Positions 15,292-56,186 of a DNA stretch of 64,000 nucleotides are shown here, in pieces. Each line of letters starts with the position of its first letter. Position 1 is the first letter of the stretch. The notes under the pieces were generated by a model. The model searched no databases. It was not told the DNA's origin and saw only the letters and a program-made list of their open reading frames with translations. The position numbers and the translations under genes are program-made. The DNA is taken from the IMG/VR virus record IMGVR_UViG_3300006131_000009; one strand, written 5' to 3'. This DNA comes from an uncultured virus (IMG/VR IMGVR_UViG_3300006131_000009). Its lineage: Duplodnaviria > Heunggongvirae > Uroviricota > Caudoviricetes.

Positions 15292-16767
15292 ATGAAACTT
15301 TACGCCCGCTATTTGCGAAAATCCCGCGCTGAAGAAGGACAAGACCTGCAGGAGGTATTGTCAAAGCACAAAAAGGCGCTGGATGATTTAGCTGAAAAAC
15401 AGAATATTGTCGTGTCTGATACATACGAGGAAATTGTCTCCGGTGAGAGCATCGCATTGCGGCCTCAAATGCTGCTGCTGCTTGATGCTGTGGAGCAAGG
15501 CAAATATGCCGGAGTTTTGTGCATGGACATTGACCGATTAGGCCGTGGTGGTATGCGTGACCAGGGCCTAATTTTAGATACTTTCCGTGCCAGCAATACT
15601 TTAATTATTACACCTGACAAAACGTATGACCTAAATGATGACTCCGACGAACAAATGACAGAGTTTAAGGCTTTCTTTGCCCGGCAGGAATATAAGATGA
15701 TTCGCAAGAGGATGCGCAGAGGCGTCGTTGCCACCTTGGAATCCGGCGGATATATCTCTAATCCCCCCTTCGGGTACCGCCAGTGCAGAGTCGGAAGACG
15801 GCCATCACTGGAAATTGTGGAGGAGGAAGCAAAATTTGTCCGCATGATTTTTGACGATTATGCTGCCGGCAGCGGCATGACTGCCATAGCCGACAAGCTA
15901 AATCGCTTGGGTGCCAAAACGCGACGCGGCGCTCCATGGTCAAGGTATACCGTTCGATACATCTTGACAAATCCAGTTTACCTTGGTAAAATTTATCATA
16001 ACAGGCGGAATTGTCGGGATAACGGTACATCCGACAGTTATCTGCGGGACCCCGCTCAATGGATTGTTGCCGATGGATTGCATCCGCCTATCATCACCAA
16101 AGCCCAGTGGGACGCTGTACAGCAGTGGCGCAAGAACCACTATCAGCCTACTCAATATGACGGCAAAGCTCATCATCCCCTGACCGGACTCTTGGTATGT
16201 GCCAAATGCGGCCGACGAATGCAGTTGGTCAGTGATAAGAATGATCCGTATCTCTACTGCTCTCGCTCCGGTTGTATGCCGGGGACAAAAGAGACCTTTG
16301 TAGAAACTGCTCTCTTGGAAGCCCTAGATGGCATTTTAACGGGCCTTAAGCAGGAGTCGTCTACTGACATTAAAAACCGAATTACGGCTGCACAAGAAGA
16401 CCTGAAGCGGGCCGAAGCGGCTATTGTCAAATGTAATGCCAAGCGTGACCGTCTTTACGGCTTTTTAGAAGACGGTACTTACGATAAAGCCACATTTACT
16501 GCCCGCATGAGCGTTATTGAAGGAGAGCTGTACAAGCTCCAAGCAGAGCGGCGCAGTGCTGAAGAACACCTAGAGTCCCTGTCTGAAGTCAATCGTGAAA
16601 TTCAAATAGAGAAACTGGAAAGCGCCTTGAGTCTATACGGTCAAGCCTCTCATGAAGACCGAAACCGCTTGCTCAAGTCCATTATATCCTATGTTGAATA
16701 TCGCAAGGAGAAAGGTACCGCTCCCCGCGATTTTCATATAAGCATCCACTTAAGGTCATTTATGTAA
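15292..16767 (+). CDS. large serine recombinase (integrase)
   Basis: YLRKS catalytic Ser, DIDRLGR, recombinase domain, CAKCG Zn ribbon, coiled coil. Confidence 0.95.
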   Translation: MKLYARYLRKSRAEEGQDLQEVLSKHKKALDDLAEKQNIVVSDTYEEIVSGESIALRPQMLLLLDAVEQGKYAGVLCMDIDRLGRGGMRDQGLILDTFRASNTLIITPDKTYDLNDDSDEQMTEFKAFFARQEYKMIRKRMRRGVVATLESGGYISNPPFGYRQCRVGRRPSLEIVEEEAKFVRMIFDDYAAGSGMTAIADKLNRLGAKTRRGAPWSRYTVRYILTNPVYLGKIYHNRRNCRDNGTSDSYLRDPAQWIVADGLHPPIITKAQWDAVQQWRKNHYQPTQYDGKAHHPLTGLLVCAKCGRRMQLVSDKNDPYLYCSRSGCMPGTKETFVETALLEALDGILTGLKQESSTDIKNRITAAQEDLKRAEAAIVKCNAKRDRLYGFLEDGTYDKATFTARMSVIEGELYKLQAERRSAEEHLESLSEVNREIQIEKLESALSLYGQASHEDRNRLLKSIISYVEYRKEKGTAPRDFHISIHLRSFM

Positions 16768-41958: not shown

Positions 41959-42996
41959 TCAAGCCACATCCGCAAGGTATCTCTCAAACAGTACACTCGA
42001 TGTCTCGAACCCCAAAACCTCACGTGGATAATTATTAATCCACGCTTCAACTTGTGCGACATACGCAGTAGAAATTTTCCGAAAGTCTGTTCCCTTTGGA
42101 AGGAAGCGTCGGATCATTTTGTTTGTGTTCTCGTTCGTGCCGCGCTCGTATGCCCTGTACGGATGGCAATAGTAAATGATGGAACGCTTTCTCTCCCCCC
42201 TACCGAAGACCGATTTTTCCATTCCGGCACAATCGGCAAATTCTGATCCGTTGTCCACCGTAATGCTTTTGAATATCTGGGGAAAGCGCCGCCCATACCT
42301 CCTCTCCAGCTTGTCCAGCGCTTTTACAACACTCGCGGCAGTCTTGTCCGGCATTTTGATGATAATTTCCTGCCGCGTCAGCCGCTCTGAAAGAACGAGC
42401 AAGGTTTCCTTCGTTCTTTTCTTGCCCTCGACACAGTCCATTTCCCAATTTCCAAATGTTTCCCGTGCATTGATTTCCTCCGGGCGGTTCTCTATACTTT
42501 CGCCCCTTGGAGCGCGGGCCGGCTTGGAGCTCACTTTAACATATTTGCGCTTGTGCTTGCCCTTCTGGGGCAGGTGCGCCCGCTCCAGCCGAAGGAAAAC
42601 ACCCTTATCTATATAATTGTATATCGTTTTTTCGCTGATGACAGTCTGGAAGTTCAGCCCCAGACGTTTGATCTCACCCACAACAGCGGCGGGGGAATAT
42701 CTTTCATCGGCAATCTTTCTTTCAATAAATTCAGCCAATTCATGATCGTTGCCGATTTTTAAGCCGCGGCCCTTAGCCTTTAATTGTTCGTCGTACTTCT
42801 GCTGGGCGATTTCCGGCGAGTATCGCTTTTCCGTGGTCAAGTCATCGTTCAAGTGTATGTATTCGCCCCTTTTCAGTTCTCTGTAAATGGTCGAATTGTT
42901 TACGTGCAGCCGGTCTGCGATCTTCAGCGGCTTCATGCCCTCTTTCTGCGCCCGCTCGATTTTGAGACGGTCAGTCCACGTTAAATGCTTGTGCAT
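41959..42996 (-). CDS. IS30-family DDE transposase (probable phage integrase)
   Basis: STIYRELKRG, WEMDCV, ITVDNGSEF, ERGTNEN.N..IRRFLPKG. Confidence 0.95.
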   Translation of the reverse strand: MHKHLTWTDRLKIERAQKEGMKPLKIADRLHVNNSTIYRELKRGEYIHLNDDLTTEKRYSPEIAQQKYDEQLKAKGRGLKIGNDHELAEFIERKIADERYSPAAVVGEIKRLGLNFQTVISEKTIYNYIDKGVFLRLERAHLPQKGKHKRKYVKVSSKPARAPRGESIENRPEEINARETFGNWEMDCVEGKKRTKETLLVLSERLTRQEIIIKMPDKTAASVVKALDKLERRYGRRFPQIFKSITVDNGSEFADCAGMEKSVFGRGERKRSIIYYCHPYRAYERGTNENTNKMIRRFLPKGTDFRKISTAYVAQVEAWINNYPREVLGFETSSVLFERYLADVA

Positions 42997-43115
42997 CGTC
43001 GCTCCTCCTATACCAAGCATCCAATTTAGGCGGTCCGTGTAAGTACAAAAAACCCCTATAAGTCCCTATTTACAACACGTTTCGCCCCACGTCAACGCCG
43101 TCATACCGTACAAAA

Positions 43116-43533: not shown

Positions 43534-44214
43534 ATGAAAAAACAAAAAGAGTACACCAGCTGGGAAGAGACTCCATTACTATTCCACTACTATTTAGTTT
43601 CCATCTCCACTCCTTTATCCCTAGTAGTCCTGATCTGCCAGTATTCTCTTGTCCGCGAAGTCATCACTCCTTGGCTGCTGGTGTATTATATCGTCAATTT
43701 CGTCCTCTTGTTCAGCGCCTTTTATTGCCTGCTGAAAAAGCGGTGGACAGGCCCCGTCCTGATGACGGCGCAGCGCCTCTTTAATGCCGTGGCCGCCGTG
43801 CTGACGATCATCAGTGTCGCATCTGACTATCGATCTGATTTCGGCTCTCTTGTGCTGGACGCTCTGGTGTTCCCGGTCCGGGCGTGCATCATTTATACCT
43901 ACTACGAAAAGCGTCGCCTCCTGTTTTCCCCACTGCCCACATGGTATACGCCGCCCCAGAAAACCAGCGGCCCCTGGAAACCGCCGTCGGATTGGGCCGC
44001 CGCATCTACCTGGACGCCACCAGCCGATTGGGCCGTTGCAGACGTCTGGACCCCCCCGTCTCAACGCCCCGCCCCGTCTCCCACCAGCCAGCAGCCGCCA
44101 GCCGAGCCGGCCAGCCCTCCCGCCACCGACCACCAACGGCAAAAAGTGCGCGTCCATGTCACCGCCGCTTCCAAACGAGCATCTGCCCGCCGTGAAGACC
44201 ATTCATCAAAATAA
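43534..44214 (+). CDS. multi-TM membrane protein with Pro-rich tail
   Basis: GGAGG RBS; about four TM helices; WTPP repeats. Confidence 0.75.
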   Translation: MKKQKEYTSWEETPLLFHYYLVSISTPLSLVVLICQYSLVREVITPWLLVYYIVNFVLLFSAFYCLLKKRWTGPVLMTAQRLFNAVAAVLTIISVASDYRSDFGSLVLDALVFPVRACIIYTYYEKRRLLFSPLPTWYTPPQKTSGPWKPPSDWAAASTWTPPADWAVADVWTPPSQRPAPSPTSQQPPAEPASPPATDHQRQKVRVHVTAASKRASARREDHSSK

Positions 44215-44226
44215 AAGGAGCACATT

Positions 44227-45180
44227 ATGAAAATTGTAATTTGGCTCGGATGTATTCTCGTATTCAGTCTGGCACAGCTCATTTTAGCCACACAAGGCAT
44301 CATGCTGGGCGGCATCCCTACCGCCCTATTGGCCGCGGTTCTCGTCTTCATCCCCGCCCCGGCCCTCTGCAAAAAGTGGCAAGAGCGCCATGGGCAAACA
44401 GGGGAAACCAAAAGCGCCGAGACGCCGCCAGTTCCACCGGACGCGCCTCCTGCCGCCTCCAACCCAGGCCGCCGGCAGAAAGTACACGCCTATGTCCGTA
44501 CGGCCGCCCCGCCTTCTCCAACGGCAGACGCTCCGCGCGCTCCAGAGGACTCGACCCCTTCCCCCAGCGCCGAGACGCCACAGCACACGGAAAAACCCCG
44601 CCAAGGCGGCAAAATCCCCATTGCAGCAGCAAAGCTGCCTGTCCTGCTGGCGTGTGGCTGTTTGATTCTCGCCGCCGCAACCACCGTATTCGGTATTTTG
44701 TATTTTAGTGCGTCTGCGCAAATCGACTCACAAAAGTCGCTCCTGGAAGAGCAAGCCGCGCAGATTGCTGAACAGAAGTCGTCCCTGGAGGAACAAGCCG
44801 CGCAAATCACCTCGCAGGAATCGTCCCTGGAGGAGAAAGAAGATGAGATCAGTTGGCTCAATACAAAGTGTTCCATGAAAGAAAAAAAGCTGGATGAGCT
44901 GACAAAGAGCAACACCGACTTGCAAAGTGAAGTGTGCCGTCTTTCACCGTATGAATCTGTCGTGCAGAACCAGCTAGGAATCATTGTTGATAACAGCAAT
45001 ACTTACCACAACTATGACTGTTCAAAGGTACAAAAGGCTGAATCTTACGTAGTGATAATGGACGTTGTCGAATGTGCAAAGCGCGGTCTTAAATATTGTC
45101 CGAATTGCTGGACAGGTGGCGGCCCGTTTTATCTTTCGCGCTATAAATACATACAGAAGAAAACGCTGCCATCGCAGTAG
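44227..45180 (+). CDS. membrane protein with coiled coil and C-terminal Zn-binding module
   Basis: TM helices; SSLEEQAAQI repeats; YHNYDC...CPNC. Confidence 0.75.
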   Translation: MKIVIWLGCILVFSLAQLILATQGIMLGGIPTALLAAVLVFIPAPALCKKWQERHGQTGETKSAETPPVPPDAPPAASNPGRRQKVHAYVRTAAPPSPTADAPRAPEDSTPSPSAETPQHTEKPRQGGKIPIAAAKLPVLLACGCLILAAATTVFGILYFSASAQIDSQKSLLEEQAAQIAEQKSSLEEQAAQITSQESSLEEKEDEISWLNTKCSMKEKKLDELTKSNTDLQSEVCRLSPYESVVQNQLGIIVDNSNTYHNYDCSKVQKAESYVVIMDVVECAKRGLKYCPNCWTGGGPFYLSRYKYIQKKTLPSQ

Positions 45181-45204
45181 TAGAAAGATAAGGAGCGCAT
45201 CGTA

Positions 45205-46320
45205 ATGGATAACCGCCCGTCCGACACCACCTGCCGCAAAGCCTCGGCGGGAGGGGCCATACATTCTCCAAATAACAGCCCTGCACGTCCAGAAAGGAAG
45301 TATAGCCGAGAGCTGGAAAGTGTGGATCGGCTGCGGGAAAAGACCCGGCAGCTGGAGCGGCAGGCCCGCCAGGAGGGCTGGAGCGAAGAAAGACTCCGCC
45401 AGGAAAAAAGGAACGCCGTGGGCCAGGTATACGAGGGCCTTTTGGCGCGGCTTGACGCCATAGACGCAGGCCAGCGCCGCTGCCCGCCGCCACCTGCACC
45501 GGCCAGCCCTTCTGCCGCCTCCAAGACCGGCCAACGGCAGAAAGTGCGCGTCCATATCCGCCCGTCCTCCAAGGCCGCCCACAAGGCAGATGCCTGCCCC
45601 GCTGCAGCAGACTCGGCCCCTTCCCCCATCGCCGAGACGCCACAGCACACGGAGCGCCAAGACACAGTCCCCCAAAATCCCACTTTCAGAAAGAATCTGC
45701 CGATTCTGCTGGGGTGTGCCTGTCTGCTGCTGGCTGCCGCAGTGATCGTATTCGGCGCTTTGTACTTCCAGGCGTCGAACCGATCAGAAACTGCCGAGCC
45801 GGCCCTTTCTTCTTCAGAACCTCCTTCTTCCGAGCTTGATGACACCCCGATTGCACAGCCGCCATCTGAATCGTCTGATTCGCAGCCTGCAAAGGAAACA
45901 GAGGATACTCCCACTGTCTTGACTCCCCGATACATTTACAATGGAGAAATTATGCAGTTTCCAGTGGGAACACGTGTGGCGCCGTTAAAGGTCAATACAA
46001 CGGCCCAGGCAAATGGATATTACATTGTGATGGTCGCCGAAAACAAAGATACACTTTCTTTCTATGTAAAAGGCGGCAAAAGTGCAGAAATCGACGTGCC
46101 TACCGGAACGTTTGAAATCTGGTATGCCACCGGCACCACCTGGTACGGAAAAGAGGCAAAATTCGGCAGTGAGACGCAATATTATAAATGTGACGGCACT
46201 TTTCGCTTTTATCTCGATTCCGATTCCCGTACCTATATGGGCTGGGAATTGAGCCTTTATCCCACCTTCGGCGGCAATCTGTCCATAGAGACTGTAAGCC
46301 CTGAAGACTTCCCCGCATAG
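45205..46320 (+). CDS. membrane-anchored protein with extracellular beta domain
   Basis: Central TM helix; FYVKGG...VPTGTFEIWYATGTTWYG. Confidence 0.7.
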   Translation: MDNRPSDTTCRKASAGGAIHSPNNSPARPERKYSRELESVDRLREKTRQLERQARQEGWSEERLRQEKRNAVGQVYEGLLARLDAIDAGQRRCPPPPAPASPSAASKTGQRQKVRVHIRPSSKAAHKADACPAAADSAPSPIAETPQHTERQDTVPQNPTFRKNLPILLGCACLLLAAAVIVFGALYFQASNRSETAEPALSSSEPPSSELDDTPIAQPPSESSDSQPAKETEDTPTVLTPRYIYNGEIMQFPVGTRVAPLKVNTTAQANGYYIVMVAENKDTLSFYVKGGKSAEIDVPTGTFEIWYATGTTWYGKEAKFGSETQYYKCDGTFRFYLDSDSRTYMGWELSLYPTFGGNLSIETVSPEDFPA

Positions 46321-46352
46321 ATGGCCGCCCTGCAATTTTAATAGGCTGTAAT

Positions 46353-46382
46353 AAAAAGGACCGGGTATCCCCCGGTCCTTTT
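46353..46382. terminator. bidirectional terminator
   Basis: AAAAGGACCGGG/CCCGGTCCTTTT between convergent genes. Confidence 0.85.
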
Positions 46383-46472
46383 CCATGTTATCCTACCTGC
46401 TTCATCTTCTGCAGGGCCTTCTGTACAGCAGCCTTGTTGTAGACTATGCCGCCTCCCAACTGTACGAGGGGT

Positions 46473-46697
46473 CTACTGCTCCGGGTCCGGCCCGTTTTTC
46501 ATCCGAATCTCCGCTGCCTTCTCGAAGCACTCCTGCGCCGTCGGCTCCTTCTCCAGACTCCTGCACCATTGGAAAAACTCCTGTACGTTCTCCTCTGTCT
46601 CCAATGTGAGGCCCACGGCTATCACGTCCTCATCTTTTGCTTTGATACTCCCCATCAATCTCCCCAGAAAGTGAGCTGAATCGTTCGTCATTTCCAT
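46473..46697 (-). CDS. 74-aa helical protein overlapping the 3' end of the polyvalent gene
   Basis: AGAGGGG RBS; resembles nested ORF 46986-47237. Confidence 0.6.
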   Translation of the reverse strand: MEMTNDSAHFLGRLMGSIKAKDEDVIAVGLTLETEENVQEFFQWCRSLEKEPTAQECFEKAAEIRMKNGPDPEQ

Positions 46698-49600
46698 ACT
46701 GTGCCCCTCTTAAAATCTTATTGATGATATTCCGATTTGTCGCTGGATCAAGTCTTACCGTAACTTCAAATGCTCCCAGGTCATAGTTGCGAATTATGTA
46801 AAACTTATCATGCGCAAATACATAACCAGTCTCCGGAATGTTTTCTGCATCCATTCCGGCGTATTTTTGCATCTGTGCGTTCTGGACCTGTCGCCACTCC
46901 TGCTTTGACAGTTTAGGCCGTTTCAGCTCCCGGCTGTATTTGCTTCCCGCCATACCACCAGCATCCGCACCAGCTTCAGAGGTCTCTATTGCGTTTCCTC
47001 TTCCTCCATCATTTCGTCGTCCTCCGTTTTCTCTATTCTGGAAGATATTGCGGAGGACGCTTTCATAAGCTGCTCTTGGCTTGCGTCCGGATTTCTTTTG
47101 CAGAACTCCAGCATCTCCAGAACCGCTTCCTCGGACCATAGTTCCGTTACCATTATCAGTACCGCCAGCCTCTCGCACCCAACTGCTGCTAGATATCTGG
47201 TCAGCAATTTCTGATTTTCCGATAATATATTCCCCATAGTCCATTTCCTCCAATATATTTTTGAGATAGTCTCTCTCAAATTTAGCCTGCTCGCCCTTCA
47301 CCTCGTACAAAATGGTGGGATTGCTTTCGTTTTCTGTGCTGTAGATTGCAAATACAGGCACTCCATCAAAGGTGCGGAATGTCCAGTTTGCATTGTCGCA
47401 AATAGTATTTTTGCTGCTTTTTAGGTCATACTTCACCCACTGGACCAGCTTCTCCATTTGCGCTTTCGTCAGGTCAGAATGCCAGTATTCCCGGCTCATT
47501 TCGCCACTAGCGGCCAAAGGCGGTCCTCTGGTGCCGCCGCCCTTGCCTGCGGCATCTTGCGCCGCCACTTTCGCCTCTTTCAGCAGCTTCTGCGCCAATT
47601 CCTCGCTCACTGTCTCGGCAAATATATTCATGTCACCAAGGCTGTCGCAAATGATCTCCTCCCAGATTTCATCCGCCGTCATGCCTGTGCCGTCGTAGGC
47701 GTCCGTGTAGAGCTGCGCCGCCTCTTTCGGGTCATAGTGCTCGGCAATCCGTCCACGCACTGCGTCCAAATTCACCTGGCCCTTTGCGATCATGTCGTGG
47801 CCGGCCTCGTGGCGTATAATCTGGTCGGCCGTGTACTGGGGATGGTCCACCCGCACAAAAACACGGTCCCCGGAGATATAGCCCCGCGCACTGGCCCAGC
47901 TTCCGTCCTTTTGCCGTATCTGCAGGTTGTCTCCAGCAAAAAGTGTCAGCCGTAAGCCCCGCTTTTTTGCCAGTTTCTTTGCCGCCTTGGTGGCCTTTGT
48001 CTCGCCGCCTGTCACCAGGCGGATGCTGGCCTTTGTAGAGCCGCCTCCAATGCCCAGGCTGGAGGCGCTTACCTTCTCTCCATAAGTGAGGAAAGCTGCT
48101 CTAGCATCTGCTGGTCTTTCTTGGACTGCCCGGCCCGGATTTTCTCCTGCTCCTTTTTCCACTGGAGATACTTGCTTGCCGGAATCCGTACTTCCAGCCC
48201 GTTGGCTGCCGTCGCGTAAATGAACTTTTTCACTGCCATATTTATCTGTCCCCTCCTGATTCTTGGTTGTAGTATAGTTGTTTTTTCCCGCTTTTGCAAT
48301 GGCCGCGTCCTGCTGGCCGGCCGCATAAGCCGACAGGCGTAGGCCCTCTGTCAGCTTGGCTGCATACTCGCCTTTCACGTCTGAAAAGTTCTTTCCCGTC
48401 AGCCCCGCCTGGTATGCCTGTACAAAGCCGCCGAAAAACGTCGCGTCGTCATACTGCCGCCCGAACTCTGTGTCCCGGACAGCCTGGTACGTTTCCTGGC
48501 CGTTTTCTCCCAATGTTCTTATGGCGTCGCTGATGGAGTTTTGCGGCCCGTTTTGATTTTGCCGTATGTCTTCCTGCCCAGATGTGTAAACGTCCGTCTG
48601 CAGGCCTTCTAGGCCCCTCTGGGGGCTTTGTACATTTTGGTCCGCCTGCTGCATGGCAGTTTGACCTGCTGTTGGCGCCAAACTGGCCTCTGTGTTGACA
48701 CCGGTCTGCCCCTGTGGTATGCTGGATTCAGCAGGAGTTACGGCATTTGCGTTTTCGGACGTGTGCATCGAGGCGGTTTCCGCACCGGTGGGATGCTGGA
48801 CTCCTGTTTCTTTTGCCATATAAGCTGATACAATGTAGGCCGTTTTGGCTTTCGTATCCGGAACTGCCTCGACCACATAATACGTCCCGTTTACTTTTTT
48901 TTCATAGACAATTGATTTTGCAAGTCCAGGTTTTCCATTGCTCTTTACAGTCGTATAGGACTGAACTGTACCTCCTTCCCGAAGCGTGTCGTAATTGTCC
49001 AAAACATACTGGATGCGTCCAACATCATTTAGGTCTGCCATGGAATGGTCTGTCATACCATTCGGCCCGTGATCTTTGTAGATATGCTCGGCCATTCTCT
49101 GTTCCATGATGACCTTAAAACCAGATGTGTCGACTCCCGTTTTTTGCTTTATATCTGCTGCCGCTCGGTCAGACATGGTTTTGAAAAAGAATTTCCCACT
49201 GTTAGCCCCTTTATTGGAAATGGAGTCTTCCACAAACCTTACCAATTCAGGGTCCACCGCGGCCTGATATGCATCAACGACCGCTTGCTCTTTTGCCGTG
49301 TGCTCTGCCGGGTCCGTGTTAATAGCTGTACTATCCGCCGTCTCTGCCCTAGAGGCGGCGTTTTGCGGCCCGTTTTGATTTTGCCGTATGTTTTCTTGTC
49401 CAGGGGCATAAAATGGCGTCTGCGGGCCTTCTAGGCCTCTCTGGGGACTTTGTATGTTTTGGTCCGCCTGCTGCATGGCAGTTTGGCCCACTACTGGTAT
49501 TGGACCAGCTTTCTGGTTGACACCATCGTGTTCTCGTGTTACATTGATTTCAGAAGAATCTTGCGTCGGTGCGTCTTGGGCGTAAAGTGTAGGGCCGGAG

Positions 49601-52461
49601 TTTACTCCGGTATTATGCTCCGATTGCGGATTCTTCTGTTTTTGCACATCCGCTGTTGATGCCATATTGGCCTCTGTGTTGACACCGGTCTGCCTCTGTG
49701 GTATGCTGGTATTGCCAAGGGCAGAGGTGGACAGCGGTATTGGAGCGGCTTCGGCCGTGCGCGATGCGTAGTAGGCGGCCTCTGCCCTTGGTTTGTAATT
49801 TTGCTCATACCACTGTGTGGAAACTTGATAAGCTGTAACCGGGTGTAGACTCTTACGGCCTTTGGAAACGGTCTCGATGATAATCGTGTGACCGTTTATT
49901 TTTTTGCCTAGCATTACCCGAACAGTACCATTTTTTCTCCTATTTACTTCAATTATGTCATCATAGTTCTGAATATACTCTGGCAGTGATAGCGCCTGCT
50001 CTTCTGTCAGGGGGATGTTGCGGCTGTCTACATCTTCTCCCACGTGCTTTGCAAGGTGTCCGATTTCATTGGCGCTCAATTCCATGTAATACCCAGAAAT
50101 GTCTATTTGGCCGTCCGTCGCCGCCAGCACATCGCTTGCCAGCCGTTCCGTCGCCCGGCCATACGCCTTGACTGTTTCGCGCACTTGGCCGTGCAGTGCC
50201 TTTTTGATAAAATCCTTCACCTGCTGAACAGTTGTCAAAATGGGGGACTGCCCCTGCTGGAGCTGTGCGCTCTTGGTGTCACGAACGTGCTTTCTCGTTC
50301 CGGCCGCCAGATAGTCGTCCAGGTCTGCTTCTGTCAGCATATTCTGAATGCCGCCCGCCGCCATCGTCCCAGAGGCGGCGTTTTTGTCTGCTCCAGCTCC
50401 CAGCCTACCGGCTTCAAAGACGTCCGATAGTTTGGCATTTTCCTGCATGATCTCCAGGCTGGTCTCCCGCGCAACGTGGCTACCGTCTAAAATGCCTGCG
50501 GTCAGTGCGCCGAGGAGAAAAGAATATGCTGCATCTTCGCTTACCAGTTTGATTTCATTGTCCTCGTCCAATAGCAAATTCCGAAAGGCCGGTTCCAAAA
50601 TTTCCTGGATGTATTCCTCGCTGCCCTCTCCGAACATACTCAATCCCACATTGGCAGCGATGCGCAGCATAGCATTGTCGATATTGCGGATAGAGGCTTT
50701 GGCCGCGGCGTTCAAGCCGTTTTTTCCCAAGGAGCTGATGCCGCCAAGAACATACTCTAGTCCCGCTTCCGAGGCGCCTATCAAAAGGGAGTAAGACTTA
50801 GCCTTGTCCGGCGCATATCCCTGTGCCAGCGCCTGCTGATAGGCGTTGCCGCTGGCCGACAAGCCTAGACTGATAGAGCCGATCGCCTTGGCTGCGGCAA
50901 GCGGCGCGCCAAATGCCGAAGCAACGGTAGACAGCAAAATAGACGGCGCCATATTTGCCGAAGTCGTCACTAGATCATATGCAACTTGTCCCAGACTGGA
51001 GCCTAGTATTTTAGGTCCCGTTTCTGCTAAATCATCCCGCACATACTGGGAGCCGTATTGGATCGCAGTCGTAGGTCGGTAACCATCGGAGAAAAAGGAC
51101 TTGACGCCGCTGGTAAATTGGTCCAATCCGCTGACAACGCCATACCCGGCTGTAGAAAGCGTGCGTAAAACATCGTTGTCAATATCTCGCGCTTGTTTGC
51201 CAAACTGAAGTCCTCTTCTGGCATTTAAGGTCTCTGCCAGGGCATCCAGGTATCCTTGCGCGTCGTCCTTTCCTTTTTTTGCAAGTATGTAGTTGTAAAG
51301 ATTCAGCTCCTCCTTGGTCATAAACTCGTATGCTTCTTCACCGCCAAATTTTACGTTCTCCAGATAGAACTTGACGGGATTTGCCGTTTCCTCGGCAAAA
51401 GGCTGCCATCCAAAAATAGACATGCCACCGCCGCCCTCGCCCTGGTACCAGCCGGGGTTTTCCAAATCCCAGCCCATCTTTGCATATTTCTGAAATTCCG
51501 GGTCTTGGCGGTAGACTTCATAGGCTCGTGCTCCTTGAACACGCTTGGCCTGCCGCAGCGTCTCTTCCTCCTCGTCGGCCCGTTTCTTTACCGCCTGATA
51601 CGCAATATACTTCTGCCGTTGCTGCTCCACATCGTCATATGGTTTCGATAGATTCTGCAGCATCTGTGTCTGCTGCAGCCGCAGCTCCTGTACCTTCTTT
51701 TCTTGGGAAAGAACGTCTACTTGGTCGTACCGGTAGTCGGTTTGAATCTGTTTAGCAGTTTTCAGCTTTTGGTCTAAATTTTCCACTTGTTGTTCAATTT
51801 TTTGAACCTTTTGCCAATCTTCTTCCCACTGTTCAGCTGTATCGTGGGGCAAATCGAGCTGCTGTTCCAGCTTATCCAGTTCCCGCTGTAAGCTGTCTCT
51901 TGCCCACTGTCCCATTTCCAGGTCCATGTCCAAAAGGTCCTGCCGCTGCTTCTGCTCTCTTCTGATCTTCTCATTGACAGTATTTTGAAAAATCTCATTC
52001 ATCTGCGGCGACATAGCCTTCTGCGTGATGTTTAGCACCGTTTCAGGTATGCTGCTGATTTCCCGCGCCATTTTGGCCCTTCTGGGGTCTTTGCCAGAGG
52101 CATAATCCTGCAATGGCTGTGTGGCCGCCTGCACGCCGGCAGCGCCAAGCTGCAGCGCATCGTAGGCGGAAACGCCCTTTGCCGCCTTGGCCCTGGCAAT
52201 GGAATCCTCTGGGGAAATGGTGGGGACTTCCCTGCGGTATAATTCCAGTGCCTGGCTCCGCTGACTTCGGTTGCGAGATAGCGACGGACCGAAGCCATTT
52301 TTCAAAAAGTGCTCTCTAGCCGACGTCAGGCTGTTAGCAGAGCGAGTAGAATGCAGACTGCCCTGTCTGTTTGTCTGCGCCGTTTGCGCCTGCCCTGTCT
52401 TTGCGCCGCCTTGCCCTTGCTGCAAAAACCTGTTGCGGGCCTTTTCCAAACCTGTATCCAT
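46630..52461 (-). CDS. large polyvalent (probably ejected internal virion) protein with two PBECR-like nuclease domains and a HExxH metallopeptidase-like domain
   Basis: 1943 aa; GEGSEEYIQE helical region; KKINGHTIIIETV/KKVNGTYYVVEAV domains; IRHEAGH..EEIICD. Confidence 0.85.
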   Translation of the reverse strand: MDTGLEKARNRFLQQGQGGAKTGQAQTAQTNRQGSLHSTRSANSLTSAREHFLKNGFGPSLSRNRSQRSQALELYRREVPTISPEDSIARAKAAKGVSAYDALQLGAAGVQAATQPLQDYASGKDPRRAKMAREISSIPETVLNITQKAMSPQMNEIFQNTVNEKIRREQKQRQDLLDMDLEMGQWARDSLQRELDKLEQQLDLPHDTAEQWEEDWQKVQKIEQQVENLDQKLKTAKQIQTDYRYDQVDVLSQEKKVQELRLQQTQMLQNLSKPYDDVEQQRQKYIAYQAVKKRADEEEETLRQAKRVQGARAYEVYRQDPEFQKYAKMGWDLENPGWYQGEGGGGMSIFGWQPFAEETANPVKFYLENVKFGGEEAYEFMTKEELNLYNYILAKKGKDDAQGYLDALAETLNARRGLQFGKQARDIDNDVLRTLSTAGYGVVSGLDQFTSGVKSFFSDGYRPTTAIQYGSQYVRDDLAETGPKILGSSLGQVAYDLVTTSANMAPSILLSTVASAFGAPLAAAKAIGSISLGLSASGNAYQQALAQGYAPDKAKSYSLLIGASEAGLEYVLGGISSLGKNGLNAAAKASIRNIDNAMLRIAANVGLSMFGEGSEEYIQEILEPAFRNLLLDEDNEIKLVSEDAAYSFLLGALTAGILDGSHVARETSLEIMQENAKLSDVFEAGRLGAGADKNAASGTMAAGGIQNMLTEADLDDYLAAGTRKHVRDTKSAQLQQGQSPILTTVQQVKDFIKKALHGQVRETVKAYGRATERLASDVLAATDGQIDISGYYMELSANEIGHLAKHVGEDVDSRNIPLTEEQALSLPEYIQNYDDIIEVNRRKNGTVRVMLGKKINGHTIIIETVSKGRKSLHPVTAYQVSTQWYEQNYKPRAEAAYYASRTAEAAPIPLSTSALGNTSIPQRQTGVNTEANMASTADVQKQKNPQSEHNTGVNSGPTLYAQDAPTQDSSEINVTREHDGVNQKAGPIPVVGQTAMQQADQNIQSPQRGLEGPQTPFYAPGQENIRQNQNGPQNAASRAETADSTAINTDPAEHTAKEQAVVDAYQAAVDPELVRFVEDSISNKGANSGKFFFKTMSDRAAADIKQKTGVDTSGFKVIMEQRMAEHIYKDHGPNGMTDHSMADLNDVGRIQYVLDNYDTLREGGTVQSYTTVKSNGKPGLAKSIVYEKKVNGTYYVVEAVPDTKAKTAYIVSAYMAKETGVQHPTGAETASMHTSENANAVTPAESSIPQGQTGVNTEASLAPTAGQTAMQQADQNVQSPQRGLEGLQTDVYTSGQEDIRQNQNGPQNSISDAIRTLGENGQETYQAVRDTEFGRQYDDATFFGGFVQAYQAGLTGKNFSDVKGEYAAKLTEGLRLSAYAAGQQDAAIAKAGKNNYTTTKNQEGTDKYGSEKVHLRDGSQRAGSTDSGKQVSPVEKGAGENPGRAVQERPADARAAFLTYGEKVSASSLGIGGGSTKASIRLVTGGETKATKAAKKLAKKRGLRLTLFAGDNLQIRQKDGSWASARGYISGDRVFVRVDHPQYTADQIIRHEAGHDMIAKGQVNLDAVRGRIAEHYDPKEAAQLYTDAYDGTGMTADEIWEEIICDSLGDMNIFAETVSEELAQKLLKEAKVAAQDAAGKGGGTRGPPLAASGEMSREYWHSDLTKAQMEKLVQWVKYDLKSSKNTICDNANWTFRTFDGVPVFAIYSTENESNPTILYEVKGEQAKFERDYLKNILEEMDYGEYIIGKSEIADQISSSSWVREAGGTDNGNGTMVRGSGSGDAGVLQKKSGRKPRAAYESVLRNIFQNRENGGRRNDGGRGNAIETSEAGADAGGMAGSKYSRELKRPKLSKQEWRQVQNAQMQKYAGMDAENIPETGYVFAHDKFYIIRNYDLGAFEVTVRLDPATNRNIINKILRGAQYGNDERFSSLSGEIDGEYQSKR
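46986..47237 (-). CDS. 83-aa ORF nested out of frame in the polyvalent gene
   Basis: GGAGG RBS + ATG; MGNILSENQKLLTRYLAAVG...; similar to 46473-46697. Confidence 0.55.
   Translation of the reverse strand: MGNILSENQKLLTRYLAAVGCERLAVLIMVTELWSEEAVLEMLEFCKRNPDASQEQLMKASSAISSRIEKTEDDEMMEEEETQ
48069..48239 (-). CDS. 56-aa ORF nested out of frame in the polyvalent gene
   Basis: Own promoter TTGCAA-17-TATACT (48271-48299) and AGGAGGGG RBS. Confidence 0.55.
   Translation of the reverse strand: MAVKKFIYATAANGLEVRIPASKYLQWKKEQEKIRAGQSKKDQQMLEQLSSLMERR
48695..48814 (+). ncRNA. antisense promoter plus closed-stem RNA unit C
   Basis: TTGACA-17-TATGCT; stem CAGGAGT(48732-38)/ACTCCTG(48800-06); T-rich tail. 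Confidence 0.55.
49517..49643 (+). ncRNA. antisense promoter plus closed-stem RNA unit B
   Basis: TTGACA-17-TACATT; stem CAGAAGAATC(49551-60)/GATTCTTCTG(49629-38); TTTTT. Confidence 0.55.
49679..49802 (+). ncRNA. antisense promoter plus closed-stem RNA unit A
   Basis: TTGACA-17-TATGCT; perfect 13-bp stem CCAAGGGCAGAGG(49715-27)/CCTCTGCCCTTGG(49779-91). Confidence 0.55.
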
Positions 52462-52472
52462 CTGATGCCCCT

Positions 52473-53729
52473 TTACATTGTCAGTGCGCGGTACAGCGCG
52501 TTTGCCTCTCTCTGGGTAATTTTCTTTTCCTTGAGCGCCGTCTGAATGGACTTGTCTATAACGTCAGTATTCAGGCCCCCTTGATGGGCGTGGAGCAGCA
52601 GCTCTCTGGAGTAATCGCTCCATGGAGGATCAAGCATAAACTGCTTAAAATTACCGTAGCTGTTCATAATGAACTCGAAATCGTCCCGGTCGAATCCAAA
52701 CTCCTTGTAGTGCTGGCGCATATATGCCTCTGGGTCGTCACTGTCGTACATACTGTTTAGAAGCTCTTCCATCTCGCCAGGGCCATCATCTGACCCAGCC
52801 GGTCCGCCGAGCGTGTACCCACTGCCACTGCTTGTCCCCTGCTGCATTCCATATGCCGTTTCATACTGGTCCAGCTCCGCTTGCGACAGGCCCGACTTCT
52901 CCACCAAATCCGGCGACAGCTCGGACGCCTTGCCGCCTGCCTGCAAAAAAGATAGGGCCCGGTCGCGAGCGTCAGCCTGCTGCTGGTCTTCTCTGTTCTG
53001 CTGGTCCTGCTCCTGGTTGTAGTCAAACTGTTTACCAGTCCAGTACTGGTTCGCATTGAAGGCTTTGTCTGTGTTGTATTGGGCAAGATCATCCTGGTAT
53101 ACGCCGTATTTGTCACTACGCAGGCCCCGCAGCAAGTCCACATTCTGGAGCATCTGGTTGCCCTCGTCCATGTACATCTGGTAGGCCAGCTGCTTTAGCT
53201 CCGGAATTTTGTCTGCCAAAGCCGCCATGTAGCCGTCGTATGTCTGTTGGCTGGCCGTACTGGCGTAGGAGCTGGCAAGCCCGCCTGTTCTGGCGCTGAC
53301 CTGGGCCAAGGTGTCCTCCATGGCCTGCTTTCCCTGGCGGGTGTAGCTGTCTTTGTACTGCTGGTAGGTCGGGTCCTGTTCCGGGTCATAGGAAAAAGCC
53401 TCCCGGTTTAGATACTTCTGGGTCCAGCTCTGGATGTCGTCGTCATATGTGTCTTCCCACTGGGGCGCCTTTTGGTACTGAAAGCCGCCGCCTTGTCCTG
53501 TAGCCAGATATTGGCTGCCGTCCTTGCCGCCGGTGTAGCCGTACTTTTCGCGCATTCCGTTCACATAGTTGTTGGCGCTGGCCCAGTCTGTTTCTCCCCT
53601 CTCGGCTGCAGTGCGAACCTCTGCCGCCTCCCGCAGCTCATCATCAGAAAAATACTTCTGGTCGTAGACGGAGCCGCCGTAGCTGGCCCGGTCTTTTTTT
53701 ACCTCGTCGTCATAGTTTTGTAATGCCAT
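52473..53729 (-). CDS. internal virion / ejection protein
   Basis: FSYDPEQDPTYQQYKDSY..GKQAMEDT..TGGLASSYA; start taken at MALQN. Confidence 0.75.
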   Translation of the reverse strand: MALQNYDDEVKKDRASYGGSVYDQKYFSDDELREAAEVRTAAERGETDWASANNYVNGMREKYGYTGGKDGSQYLATGQGGGFQYQKAPQWEDTYDDDIQSWTQKYLNREAFSYDPEQDPTYQQYKDSYTRQGKQAMEDTLAQVSARTGGLASSYASTASQQTYDGYMAALADKIPELKQLAYQMYMDEGNQMLQNVDLLRGLRSDKYGVYQDDLAQYNTDKAFNANQYWTGKQFDYNQEQDQQNREDQQQADARDRALSFLQAGGKASELSPDLVEKSGLSQAELDQYETAYGMQQGTSSGSGYTLGGPAGSDDGPGEMEELLNSMYDSDDPEAYMRQHYKEFGFDRDDFEFIMNSYGNFKQFMLDPPWSDYSRELLLHAHQGGLNTDVIDKSIQTALKEKKITQREANALYRALTM

Positions 53730-53897: not shown

Positions 53898-56186
53898 CTA
53901 TACCTCGCTTCCTGCCGAAAACTCCTGGGCCATTGTCCGAAGGGTCACTGGTCCAAAGCCGCTGATGCGCAGATAGAACCGGTCTGCTCTTCCCAGCCGC
54001 AGGGGAATGGTCAAGGTCTTTTTCTGGGTTGCGCGCTGGGTCCAAACCTGCCTCCAAAGCCCGCCGTCCTGTTTCACTTCAATTTGGAAGTGACTTCCCG
54101 CTTCCATATCCAGCCGCAGAAGCAGCTTTGTGTAGCCCTGCTTTACAAAATCTGTCTGCACGAAGGGCACAAACTCGGCCATCCAGCCAATGTGCTCTTG
54201 GGAATCCTCTCCCAGCTTGTAAATGGTGGGGCTGCTGAGCATATAAAGGCTTCCATCGCTACTTGCAAAGGCCTGTACCGGGATTTCATCCTCTTTCATC
54301 CACAGACCCGTCTGTAGATCGTAGACCAAAAGCAGATGCTTTCCCCTTTCGTCTTCCGCCGCCAAGTAGTACTGCCTGCCGTCACTGCCGCCGACGGCCC
54401 GGTATAGTTGCCTCGTCCCAAGGTTCTGGGAAATGTATGTCGGCGTGTTGCCGCTATAGGCGTAAACCCCCGTCACGCCCTTGTAGTACAGGGTGTCGTG
54501 AATATTGACGAGGCTTCTGCTGCTTGCTTTTTGCACCCCCGGCACTTGTTGGGAGACCATGTAGTATTCGCTGGGATAGCTGCCCATGATTTTGTGCAGG
54601 CTGTTTTCCTTCCAGCAGATGACGCCGCCGTAGCTGCAAATGCCGGTAAAATCGCCCTCGCTTGCCACAGCGACCTGGTAGCTGTCCGTGTCGCGGCCGG
54701 AAAAATTGTAAAAGTTGGTAGGGTCCCCCAGGCTGCTTGCGTAGATGCACCGAGAGGTGTAGGTCTTGTACTGCCCCGCCTGCGGGTCATATATCTCATT
54801 GTTCTGGCGGTTGCTCACGCCCCACAGCCGGTTATTGCTTTCACACACATAGTCTAGGTCCGGAAAATCCCTAGAAATGGTAACGGTCTGCTCCATCTGG
54901 GCATAGCTCTTTAGATGCAGCTTCCGAAAAGACGGCTGATACGTTTCCGTTTTGGAAATCTTGTGGCTGGCCACCGTCTTTTTTGTCTCCGGGTCCCAGA
55001 CGTAAACCTGGTCCCTTGGCCCAGGGTTCAGGTAGACCACCTGCCCTTTTTGCAGTGGCTGTTTCAGTGTGAAAAGGTAATAGGTGTCGTATCCTGAAAT
55101 GTCCATCTGATAAGGATATTCACTTGCCGCCGGCACCGTATAGTCTACCAGGCAGACATACTCCGGCGCCAAAAAGGTCCCTTCTACAAAAGACAAGGTG
55201 TTTGTTTCGTCGTCAAGAGCCGTCACGATCCGGCGCTCCACATCGCAAAAGCCGTAGGCACTGCCGGAAATACTCAAGGCATCCCCCGCTTTGAACGCTT
55301 CTGACAGGGCCGGCCCCTCTGTGCCAGCCTTGTAGACGTCCAGGTAAAAATGCACATGGTATCTGTTGTTGTCATCAATATTGTTGAAAATGCTCGATAG
55401 CACACAGTAATACCCCTGCTGGTTGTATTTACTTTTATCGGGTAGCCCCCTATCCGTAAAGTTAGCCACAACACCAAAGCTGTTGCCGCTGACCTCTGGG
55501 ATAATGATGTAATCTTGATACTTTGTAAGTAAATTCACCTCTCCGACTGTTCCAAACACACCGCCGATGCTCTCCAACTTTTCCAGAGCCGCCATATCCC
55601 AGGCTCCATTTTTGTAGCAAGCACTGACCGCGTCCTTTTCTTTGCCGTAGACGTAGACGTAGAAATCGTAATCTACACCATCTCCAGCCCAGCCGCCTGA
55701 TTGACGTGTATTCTCCATGAGCTTGGGATTTAAGGCTACCGTCATAGAGCTGTCTGTAAAAACAGCGCTTCCCGCCACATTCTGGGTCGTCATCTTGGCG
55801 TCCAGGGCGCCAAAGTGGCCGTTGGTCAAGTCTAAATACCGCTTGTCAGGAAAGACGCACAGCTTGGAGCCTACCACGCAAAACTGCTTTTCCCCCGATG
55901 ATACGTTGTCCACCGGCTGGCCGTCGTAGTATAAAATGCCGTCGTCCACCACCACCAGTTTTCCATCCCAGCTGAATAGGTCCTCCGGCTGCGAGTAGCC
56001 CGTAATCGGTTGCCGCCCCTGCCGCTGGATCAGATTGGGATACTGTCGGGAAGATAATCCCAAGCTGTCGCGCAGCTCTCCCGGCCTGGTATTTTCGCCC
56101 ATGTTCAGCCCCAGAAACGGGGAATTTTGCTGTCGCACCTTTTTTCTTGTATAGGGAAGTTTCGGTAGCATCAAGGAAGCCTCCAA
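53898..56186 (-). CDS. tail tubular/nozzle-like protein
   Basis: FLGLN N-terminus; NNRLWG, IYASSLGDPTNF, GDFTG, LYYKG..GVYAYSG. Confidence 0.8.
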   Translation of the reverse strand: MEASLMLPKLPYTRKKVRQQNSPFLGLNMGENTRPGELRDSLGLSSRQYPNLIQRQGRQPITGYSQPEDLFSWDGKLVVVDDGILYYDGQPVDNVSSGEKQFCVVGSKLCVFPDKRYLDLTNGHFGALDAKMTTQNVAGSAVFTDSSMTVALNPKLMENTRQSGGWAGDGVDYDFYVYVYGKEKDAVSACYKNGAWDMAALEKLESIGGVFGTVGEVNLLTKYQDYIIIPEVSGNSFGVVANFTDRGLPDKSKYNQQGYYCVLSSIFNNIDDNNRYHVHFYLDVYKAGTEGPALSEAFKAGDALSISGSAYGFCDVERRIVTALDDETNTLSFVEGTFLAPEYVCLVDYTVPAASEYPYQMDISGYDTYYLFTLKQPLQKGQVVYLNPGPRDQVYVWDPETKKTVASHKISKTETYQPSFRKLHLKSYAQMEQTVTISRDFPDLDYVCESNNRLWGVSNRQNNEIYDPQAGQYKTYTSRCIYASSLGDPTNFYNFSGRDTDSYQVAVASEGDFTGICSYGGVICWKENSLHKIMGSYPSEYYMVSQQVPGVQKASSRSLVNIHDTLYYKGVTGVYAYSGNTPTYISQNLGTRQLYRAVGGSDGRQYYLAAEDERGKHLLLVYDLQTGLWMKEDEIPVQAFASSDGSLYMLSSPTIYKLGEDSQEHIGWMAEFVPFVQTDFVKQGYTKLLLRLDMEAGSHFQIEVKQDGGLWRQVWTQRATQKKTLTIPLRLGRADRFYLRISGFGPVTLRTMAQEFSAGSEV

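Follow-up and report, generated by a model that had tools for sequence, protein, structure and literature searches.

Three short stretches of DNA within a single gene of the uncultured Caudoviricetes virus IMGVR_UViG_3300006131_000009, whose analysed stretch of 64,000 nucleotides (nt) is called the window here, appear to be self-contained small-RNA genes that are read on the strand opposite to the codons. With a probability of about 0.93, each of these units (A, B and C) starts at a promoter of its own, folds compactly, and ends with a closing helix and a U tract at the edge of a nuclease domain. The gene in question encodes P0001, a polyvalent protein, one of the large multi-enzyme proteins that are thought to be injected together with DNA by phages and conjugative elements. 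How the toxic nuclease domains of such proteins are restrained in the cell that produces them is the question that the units address, and because the hidden module recurs in more than 100 related phage genes, the RNA probably restrains the toxic RNase domains that it adjoins. In addition, units A and B are members of a structured RNA family that is widespread, apparently uncatalogued, and equipped with a promoter and a stop signal of its own.

In the proposed arrangement, the small-RNA gene would lie on the opposite strand within the codons of a disordered linker, just after an RNase domain of PBECR3 type. A host promoter of the sigma-A/sigma-70 type would start the transcript ~5-8 nt before the closing helix, the RNA would fold into a three-way junction (A, B) or an extended hairpin (C), and the closing helix together with the U tract would terminate it at the edge of the nuclease domain. 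The gene and the units are given below, with coordinates as positions in the window and P0001 as the protein of the minus-strand open reading frame (ORF) 46630-52461.

46630..52461, minus strand: polyvalent-protein gene P0001, 1943 amino acids (aa), from the ORF list and its translation; matches Pfam PBECR3
48695..48723, plus strand: putative promoter A, TTGACA-17-TATGCT with TG extension, 10/12, antisense of the SIPQGQTGVN codons
49517..49545, plus strand: putative promoter B, TTGACA-17-TACATT with TG extension, 10/12, antisense of the INVTREHDGVN codons
49679..49707, plus strand: putative promoter C, TTGACA-17-TATGCT with TG extension, 10/12, antisense of the SIPQRQTGVN codons
48729..48817, plus strand: candidate RNA unit A, three-way junction and U tail, antisense to the disordered tail after nuclease domain 2
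49551..49646, plus strand: candidate RNA unit B, diverged member of the unit A family, with no nuclease domain of its own
49713..49802, plus strand: candidate RNA unit C, extended hairpin and U-rich tail, antisense to the tail after nuclease domain 1

Promoters and folds inside the gene

Under a strict rule that combined a consensus score of at least 10/12, a 17-base-pair (bp) spacer and the TG extension, all sites in the 64-kb window, five in number, are on the plus strand, and three of them are promoters A, B and C. The same rule returned a mean of 0.003 sites and a maximum of one in 1000 dinucleotide shuffles of the plus strand of the gene, compared with the three observed. Promoters A and C represent two copies of one direct repeat, 58 nt long and 91% identical, so that the three sites count as two independent events. 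Since the sigma-70/sigma-A definition calls for a match to the TTGACA/TATAAT consensus, with A2 and T6 present in the -10 element, at a spacing of 17±1 bp and with TG optional, the TG-extended sites A, B and C qualify as putative promoters of that type. The other two strict-rule sites, at 15964 and 21126 (plus strand), both lie outside the high-GC block of the prophage.

The three promoters are each followed by the best-folding sequence of the gene. Unit A (48729-48815) folds at -38.8 kcal/mol (z -4.5), unit B (49551-49645) at -44.0 kcal/mol (z -5.5) and unit C (49713-49802) at -48.8 kcal/mol (z -5.2), and none of 200 shuffles matched the fold energy of any of them. In a sliding 90-nt fold scan of the 5.8-kb gene (383 segments), the lowest plus-strand z values were at 49555, 49705 and 48730, directly 3' of promoters B, C and A, respectively. 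The fourth-best segment, 46965-47075, was considered as a fourth unit and rejected, as it consists of a promoterless 10-bp inverted repeat (GTCCTCCG.../...CGGAGGAC) of strand-symmetric stability, with z values of -3.2 and -3.05 on the two strands.

The closing stems of A, B and C comprise 10, 11 and 15 bp, and T-rich tails come next. Unit A is composed of a P1/P1b closing stem, a P2 hairpin with GGACGU and a P3 hairpin. Unit B sits in a discrete insertion of ~170 nt (~58 aa) that is absent from the related protein P0002 in the protein alignment, and unit C carries an apical GCGG-CUUCGG-CCGU hairpin above its 15-bp stem. A simple terminator scan flagged small internal hairpins only (A 48785-48799; C 49774-49786) rather than the closing helices, each of which closes a multi-branched fold of ~70 nt and not a compact hairpin; at least five U residues in the 9 nt after the closing helix were found in 28 of 30 and 62 of 67 units. 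When positions 46000-53000 were compared with Rfam 15 by cmscan at E <= 5, only two chance-level eukaryotic matches appeared, elsewhere in the gene.

These results agree with most of what a sequence-only reading of the same DNA had described, namely three near-consensus plus-strand promoters with 17-bp spacing and TG, the stem-closed sequences of ~80-90 nt with T-rich tails behind them, and the position of A and C directly after PBECR-like domains. It had also noticed that promoters A and C encode a SIPQ..TGVN linker peptide, which holds and which can now be understood as the protein-side image of the promoter.

Conservation of the units among relatives

A search with residues 690-1330 of P0001 returned 237 relatives, of which 120 were listed, and 121 proteins including P0001 were compared. 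Family members share a tail of ~35 aa behind the PBECR3 domain, with fixed spacing, a variable middle and the end pattern [S/T/N/M]-[I/V]-[P/A/S]-Q-x4-V-[N/K]. The exchanges seen in the tail (N/K, V/S/G, S/P/A) join chemically unlike residues and thus make poor sense as protein, although they make good sense as bases of the opposite strand. With an alignment of domain and tail (A2, 22 sequences), 48 loci were retrieved among viral contigs and a further 61 in genomes of bacteria. By their record labels the latter are Bacillota throughout and nearly all Clostridia, including Oscillospiraceae, Christensenella, Lachnospiraceae, Acutalibacteraceae and Ruminococcaceae; many are metagenome-assembled genomes from gut or rumen, and, according to the record labels, the cultured gut bacteria Hominiventricola filiformis (L077) and Ruthenibacterium lactatiformans (L102) carry the module as well.

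Among viral loci with a placeable domain end, an antisense promoter-like site (at least 9/12) lies 87-216 nt beyond it in 36 of 43, nearly always with a 17-bp spacer, and 21 of 31 non-redundant units fold into a closed structure with a T tail behind it, one of them (L043) downstream of a weak promoter. Where PBECR3-like domains form arrays, one unit follows each domain, with three matches each in L122 (~400 nt apart) and L118. Searches of the phage collection for near or distant DNA relatives of the window found none, and scans of genome contigs and viral contigs with single proteins found no close relative. A degenerate DNA pattern for IPQ-x3-GVN-[TA]-E hit six stretches in viral contigs, none of which was judged a relative, since stop codons interrupt the frame in four and the open frame is unrelated in the other two.

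Alignment of 18 units with MAFFT gave no RNAalifold structure, and a covariance model was therefore seeded from five units of similar length (A4; RNAalifold -33.9 kcal/mol). This model, R1, has 86 positions and 29 pairs, and R2 was rebuilt from its matches. On the window and the 48 viral loci R1 gave 45 matches, all antisense and abutting the domain end, with A and B included and C left out. Applied to the bacterial loci, none of which had gone into building it, R2 matched in 57 of 61 at E <= 0.1, with 71 matches in total and 69 of these antisense; it also recovered the viral loci that R1 had missed, so that all 48 are covered, L045 weakly (E 0.067). Unit A scores 76.2 bits with R1 and 71.7 with R2, unit B 25.2 and 52.1, and unit C shows no significant match to R2 (13.8 bits, E 0.86). 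By these scores, A and B belong to one RNA family without Rfam match, a predicted three-way junction of ~86 nt with a U tail, antisense and 3' of PBECR3 domains. The sequence-only reading had instead taken B and C as the related pair, which the model contradicts by joining A with B, even though unit C shares the core hairpin of the A/B type.

Covariation was evaluated in alignments fitted to the model, A5 with 34 distinct rows and A7 with 70. Standard pairs occupy 86.2% of cells in A5 and 85.9% in A7, compared with 37-50% and 36-48%, respectively, when the pairing is slid, and the covariation scores of 0.654 and 0.643 compare with 0.07-0.14 and 0.09-0.125. In both alignments 26 of the 29 pairs have changed on both sides, a count reached by none of 500 shuffles for A5 and by 41 of 500 for A7, and no shuffle among 500 for either alignment reached the observed percentage paired or covariation score. 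Moreover, G-U plus U-G pairs (109 in A5, 192 in A7) exceed A-C plus C-A mismatches (23 and 39) by ~5:1, and the antisense-strand RNA is more stable than the sense RNA in 67 of 70 units, which together indicate that the folded molecule is the antisense strand, the one that the promoter would make. Covariation in the sequence 3' of PBECR domains had been put forward as a check together with constraint at synonymous sites, and both are present, the latter as follows.

A promoter site of at least 9/12 ends 2-11 nt upstream of the model start in 55 of 69 units of the independent set, compared with 2.4% of 13,800 random positions drawn from the same bacterial loci; of these 55 sites, 51 have a 17-bp spacer and 39 carry TG. 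From the 51 units with a 17-bp spacer a strict open-frame test dropped 14, and in the remaining 37 the frame phase of the promoter is constant without exception. The codon holding the 'TA' of the -10 element is xTA in all 37, being ATA in 21 of 21 cases of Ile (background 31%), GTA in 10 of 10 of Val (23%) and CTA or TTA in six of six of Leu, and the codon before it always begins with A. At the -35 element Val is written GTC in 32 of 32 (background 16%), and the five non-Val cases are AGC or GGC (Ser/Gly) and still keep TTGC. The last codon of the promoter-encoding motif is AAn in all 37, and the viral set, with GTC in 17 of 17, has the same pattern overall. The promoter is selected at the nucleotide level.

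The most conserved part of the RNA is the P2 hairpin, CG-N-UYG-G-N'-CGU, in which N covaries with N' (U-A, G-C, C-G) and in which GGNCGU and its CG partner vary hardly or not at all among 104 distinct units. Read along the coding strand, the core is ACG-nCC, giving Thr-Ser/Pro/Ala in 69 of 83 open-frame units; in the other 14 (YVQ, NAR, and LYAQDA in unit B) ACGNCC is in a shifted frame and the nucleotides are kept. The codon lock and the frame-independent core rule out a peptide motif as the sole cause of the conservation. A YUNR-like pattern, of the kind associated with recognition loops of antisense RNAs, in 96 of 104 P2 loops was given no weight, as the pattern is low in information.

In each of five whole genomes, for which 150 first-look candidates per genome were scored, R2 has a single match, located at the polyvalent-protein locus. 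The element is therefore not a dispersed repeat, and the units do not fit the definition of a dispersed palindromic insert of the RPE or MITE kind. Tandem RNA pairs exist in six loci (L012, L013, L015, L010, L016 and L040), where the promoter is directly upstream of the distal unit only, which suggests dimeric transcripts.

Units of C type are found next to relatives of domain 1, the tails of which finish in the same promoter-encoding motif. Few of these relatives yielded DNA. In three of them (L055, L058 and L060) a promoter of 10-11/12 with a 17-bp spacer precedes a long closed hairpin and a U-rich tail; the apical hairpin is of the GGNCGU type in L058, L060 and window unit C, and the apex of L055 is different. 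An alignment of the four C-type units predicts the apical hairpin only, the sequences being too few for a claim of covariation. A further domain 1 relative, L061, is followed by an A-type RNA.

Units in non-coding DNA were also sought. A stop inside or before the RNA, in the frame of PBECR3, seemed present in 11 of 96, and five of six inspected cases were open in another frame and hence reflect frame shifts of the match, not gene ends; L097 is the only inspected case with no open frame. At L097:1932-2012 and at the C-type L060:1443-1537, where the sense frame has stop codons, the RNA unit and a 10/12 promoter are intact. The RNA may have outlived the coding frame there, or the assemblies may be in error, and two cases are too few to lean on.

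The nuclease domains and their surroundings

P0001 contains two PBECR3 stretches in the Pfam comparison, and PBECR3 (PF18812) scores 71.3 bits against a cut-off of 30, the best stretch covering residues 1100-1218 at E 8e-20. No PHROG family was matched by P0001, and an HExxH motif (HEAGH) is present in it. The gene directly upstream, 53898-56186, matches phrog_511, an internal virion protein, and because of this neighbour and the PBECR3 stretches, P0001 is a phage polyvalent protein of the kind surveyed in PMC5512222, as far as the relevant passages of that survey go. The further features of the gene are as follows.

49810..50364, minus strand: predicted nuclease domain 1, P0001 residues ~700-884, from blastp of residues 700-935 against homologues
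48810..49209, minus strand: predicted nuclease domain 2, PBECR3, P0001 residues ~1085-1218, around the Pfam best stretch 1100-1218
48535..48675: 141-nt linker repeat, copy 1, encoding GQTAMQQADQN..GPQN, upstream of promoter A on the plus strand
49357..49497: 141-nt linker repeat, copy 2, upstream of promoter B on the plus strand; 84% identity between the copies

Domain 1 is a distant relative of PBECR3, a sister family with ~25% identity to domain 2, and is probably the second PBECR3 stretch of the Pfam scan, which gave coordinates for the best stretch only. Domain 2 is modelled by AlphaFold with a predicted local distance difference test (pLDDT) score of ~90 (modelled residues 1-135), and the pLDDT of 34-41 after it marks the encoded linker tail as predicted to be disordered. 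The top matches in a fold search of domain 2, all with middling Z-scores, are CdiA-CT (7.8), BrnT (7.4), a RelE-type toxin (7.1) and CdiA-CT NC101 (6.8), with the colicin D tRNase also among the matches (6.0). They are BECR RNase toxins with protein immunity or antitoxin partners, some of them solved as complexes. A Foldseek comparison of the model with the PDB found nothing at E <= 0.001. On both profile and fold, domain 2 is a predicted BECR-fold RNase.

P0002 is the closest relative of P0001 among the matches listed and has the repeated linker too. The 141-nt repeat brackets the second nuclease domain, and among the 121 proteins compared its encoded peptide occurs in P0001 and P0002 only. 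The second nuclease domain of P0002 differs from that of P0001 and has been exchanged exactly between the linker copies, which looks like a cassette exchange by recombination in the linkers.

Judging from base composition and gene content, the window carries a prophage (~24 to 58 kb). Its G+C content is 51-60% over ~24-58 kb and ~40-46% in the flanks, a step that marks the prophage extent; the genes for terminase, a P22-type portal and capsid are situated at 29-36 kb, and an amidase gene is also in the prophage region. Between the polyvalent-protein region and the terminase, inside the prophage, there is an ORF resembling an insertion sequence-type transposase (41959-43020, minus strand), with HTH_38 and rve integrase-core matches. 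Three plus-strand ORFs of 226, 317 and 371 aa at 43534-46320 oppose the minus-strand genes on both sides, and one of them gives a coiled-coil-like match to UPF0242 that is weak and falls short of the family cut-off. Just downstream of the P0001 gene, an ORF of 133 aa (45985-46386, minus strand) has no Pfam or PHROG match; it could encode a protein immunity factor, which bears on the idea of an RNA antidote.

Possible roles and comparison with known systems

The RNA would serve as an antidote, a kind of safety catch that accompanies every nuclease cassette. The nuclease domain would recognize the invariant P2 hairpin directly, the RNA acting as a pseudo-substrate or inhibitor in the manner of a type III antitoxin, and the RNase would stay inactive, both in the lysogen and in a cell producing phage, up to the packaging and injection of the protein. 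That the RNA is the antidote of the neighbouring RNase domain by direct binding is proposed tentatively. Direct binding is slightly favoured, with antisense silencing of the mRNA a close second, because the core hairpin is sequence-invariant, frame-independent and common to two RNA architectures beside two diverged BECR families; a cis-antisense target would co-vary automatically, and pure cis pairing therefore has no need of an invariant hairpin sequence. A link of the RNA to the nuclease is supported by the occurrence of one unit per PBECR3-like domain, tandem domain-RNA arrays included, by the single R2 match at the polyvalent-protein locus in each of the five whole genomes, and by the similarity of the domain fold to RNase toxins that are all restrained by a partner.

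Several observations weigh on the other side. The covariation alignments were fitted to the model, which inflates pairing, and slid or shuffled controls answer this bias without removing it; however, the gap between observed pairing and slid controls is too large for model fitting alone. The layout is unlike that of type III systems, since the units are antisense, 3' of the domain, inside the ORF and mostly single. Unit B has no domain of its own, the A-type RNA behind the domain 1 relative L061 shows that the kind of RNA does not follow the kind of domain strictly, and any cis-antisense RNA can pair with its mRNA by geometry. There is also a direct precedent in EcoRI Rna0, an antisense RNA of 88 nt whose reverse promoter lies at the 3' end of the gene for a nuclease (PMC3141266).

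A cis-antisense mechanism, similar to type I systems or to EcoRI Rna0, would have the RNA pair with the linker codons of the mRNA and bring about cleavage by a double-strand RNase or a ribosome block, thereby suppressing leaky or mistimed toxic protein, with the fold providing stability and fast loop-loop recognition. It is judged somewhat improbable taken by itself, and it explains most of the data about equally well as direct binding. Perfect complementarity to the mRNA comes with the geometry, the promoter is strong and looks constitutive, the size and stem-loop build of the RNA are typical of antisense RNAs, the loose tie of RNA type to domain type (L061) is accommodated, and the domainless unit B would still function. 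Its precedent, Rna0, which relieves killing in trans (PMC3141266), is also the better one. Nevertheless, such a mechanism needs no conserved sequence, yet GGNCGU/CG is near-invariant in 104 units in any frame and is found in the C type too, and one RNA per gene would suffice where there is one per nuclease domain. An RNA that acts in trans on something else, be it the injected nuclease or messages of superinfecting relatives, a host factor or a host RNA, is unlikely. The housekeeping-type host promoter implies that lysogens would produce the RNA at a time when the late gene is not expressed, and the single invariant hairpin suggests a conserved trans partner. Orphan immunity genes can be retained without their toxin, and the retention of unit B without a domain of its own would resemble this. 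On the other hand, the RNA was never found away from a polyvalent-protein gene, all five whole genomes having that copy only, and no candidate target emerged, no search for targets having been made.

The two remaining explanations do without a functional RNA. If the units were DNA elements, palindromic inserts or recombination joints for cassette swaps, the likeness to promoters would be incidental, and the exact exchange of the second nuclease domain between the linker repeats of P0001 and P0002, the discrete ~170-nt insertion that forms unit B and the symmetry of inverted repeats in DNA would be in keeping with it. It is nonetheless very improbable in view of the strand asymmetry (G-U over A-C by ~5:1, greater antisense stability in 67 of 70), the conservation of the whole promoter grammar including 17-bp spacer and TG, the U tail on one strand only, and the single copy per genome with no dispersed repeat. 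A peptide motif, in which the tail and its [S/T/N]-[I/V]-P-Q-x4-V-[N/K] ending would be a protease-processing or docking site and the promoter and fold its by-products, is barely credible. The pattern does recur across the family, HEAGH is an HExxH motif within P0001 itself, and autoproteolytic release of domains has been proposed by Iyer et al. in the survey's relevant passages (PMC5512222). As a sole explanation it is contradicted by the fixed synonymous codons (GTC 32/32, ATA 21/21, GTA 10/10), by unlike residues that swap while the bases stay (V/S/G at TTGnC, N/K at AA, S/P/A at nCC), by the core that persists in 14 of 83 units despite a shifted frame and by the predicted disorder of the tail; a peptide role beside the RNA role is possible.

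Direct binding of the RNA to its nuclease has a further form, more doubtful than the antidote role itself, in which immunity would operate domain by domain: each RNase cassette would carry its own inhibitor RNA backwards in its linker codons, the hairpin would dock in the active site, as a pseudo-substrate, and the lysogen would be protected from nucleases that related phages inject. If true, toxin and antidote would be inseparable by the recombination that shuffles cassettes, and toxin and antidote would be coupled in a way that forms a new class, with the RNA antidote lying in antisense within the reading frame of its own toxin.

Type III antitoxins (ToxIN, CptIN, TenpIN) are same-strand arrays of direct repeats upstream of the toxin gene and are processed by the toxin. 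The proposed likeness to them is that a structured RNA would counteract an endoribonuclease in the setting of phage-host conflict, perhaps as a pseudo-substrate, and the tandem units in L013 and L015 resemble type III arrays. However, type III toxins have a different fold, and the RNA units are located within the ORF, in antisense orientation and 3' to the domain, without the same-strand upstream repeat array and terminator that define the type III layout. Of the sequence-only proposal that each toxic domain carries its own non-coding RNA within the ORF, the conserved units have stood; the genomic layout departs from that of type III systems. In type I systems of Bacillota prophages such as txpA/RatA and bsrG/SR4, the toxin message is overlapped in its 3' region by an antisense RNA that is structured and made constitutively. 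Such an RNA and the prophage setting are shared, and the RNA is complementary to the toxin mRNA as in type I, whereas type I toxins, translation of which the RNA blocks, are small and usually hydrophobic membrane peptides with short mRNAs of their own and the present gene product is a multidomain protein of 1943 aa, with the RNA in an internal linker of a 5.8-kb ORF with RNase domains. Lambda OOP RNA is a terminated antisense RNA of ~77 nt with a constitutive promoter and overlaps the 3' end of a phage gene. It differs in starting outside the cII coding region, in its simple hairpin and in having neither a per-domain repeat nor a codon-locked promoter in an ORF.

The antidotes of BECR RNases (colicin D/ImmD, CdiA-CT/CdiI, RelE/RelB, BrnT/BrnA) are linked to the toxin and move with the cassette, as the RNA is proposed to do, and differ in that all are proteins from a neighbouring gene. 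The sections available of a preprint on BECR describe no RNA antitoxin (10.64898/2026.08.28.747851). In the founding survey of polyvalent proteins, as far as its accessible text goes, 'antisense' and 'noncoding' are absent, and none of seven occurrences of 'immunity' falls in passages on an immunity gene for polyvalent proteins (Iyer et al. 2017, PMC5512222). Literature searches of full text, supplements aside, found no antisense or structured RNA described in PBECR or polyvalent-protein genes, and together with the lack of an Rfam match this agrees with the sequence-only reading, which had not recognized the arrangement as described. Because the family lies wholly inside coding sequence, screens of intergenic regions are expected to miss it, and a genome-language-model survey of 2026 states that the way it represents coding regions precludes modelling structured RNAs embedded there. 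The units are also an unusually clean case of dual coding, the linker amino acids being dictated by the promoter and RNA fold of the opposite strand.

A close likeness in layout to the units is EcoRI Rna0, in which a reverse promoter in the 3' part of a toxic nuclease gene gives an antisense RNA of ~88 nt (PMC3141266). Rna0 lowers expression of the nuclease and relieves killing when supplied in trans, according to the passages concerned of Mruk et al. 2011 (PMC3141266). It differs in being a single system, for which those passages mention no conserved multi-helix fold or family-wide covariation (PMC3141266), whereas the units described here would form a structured family with a U-tract terminator of their own, placed once per nuclease domain within the gene for a phage virion protein.

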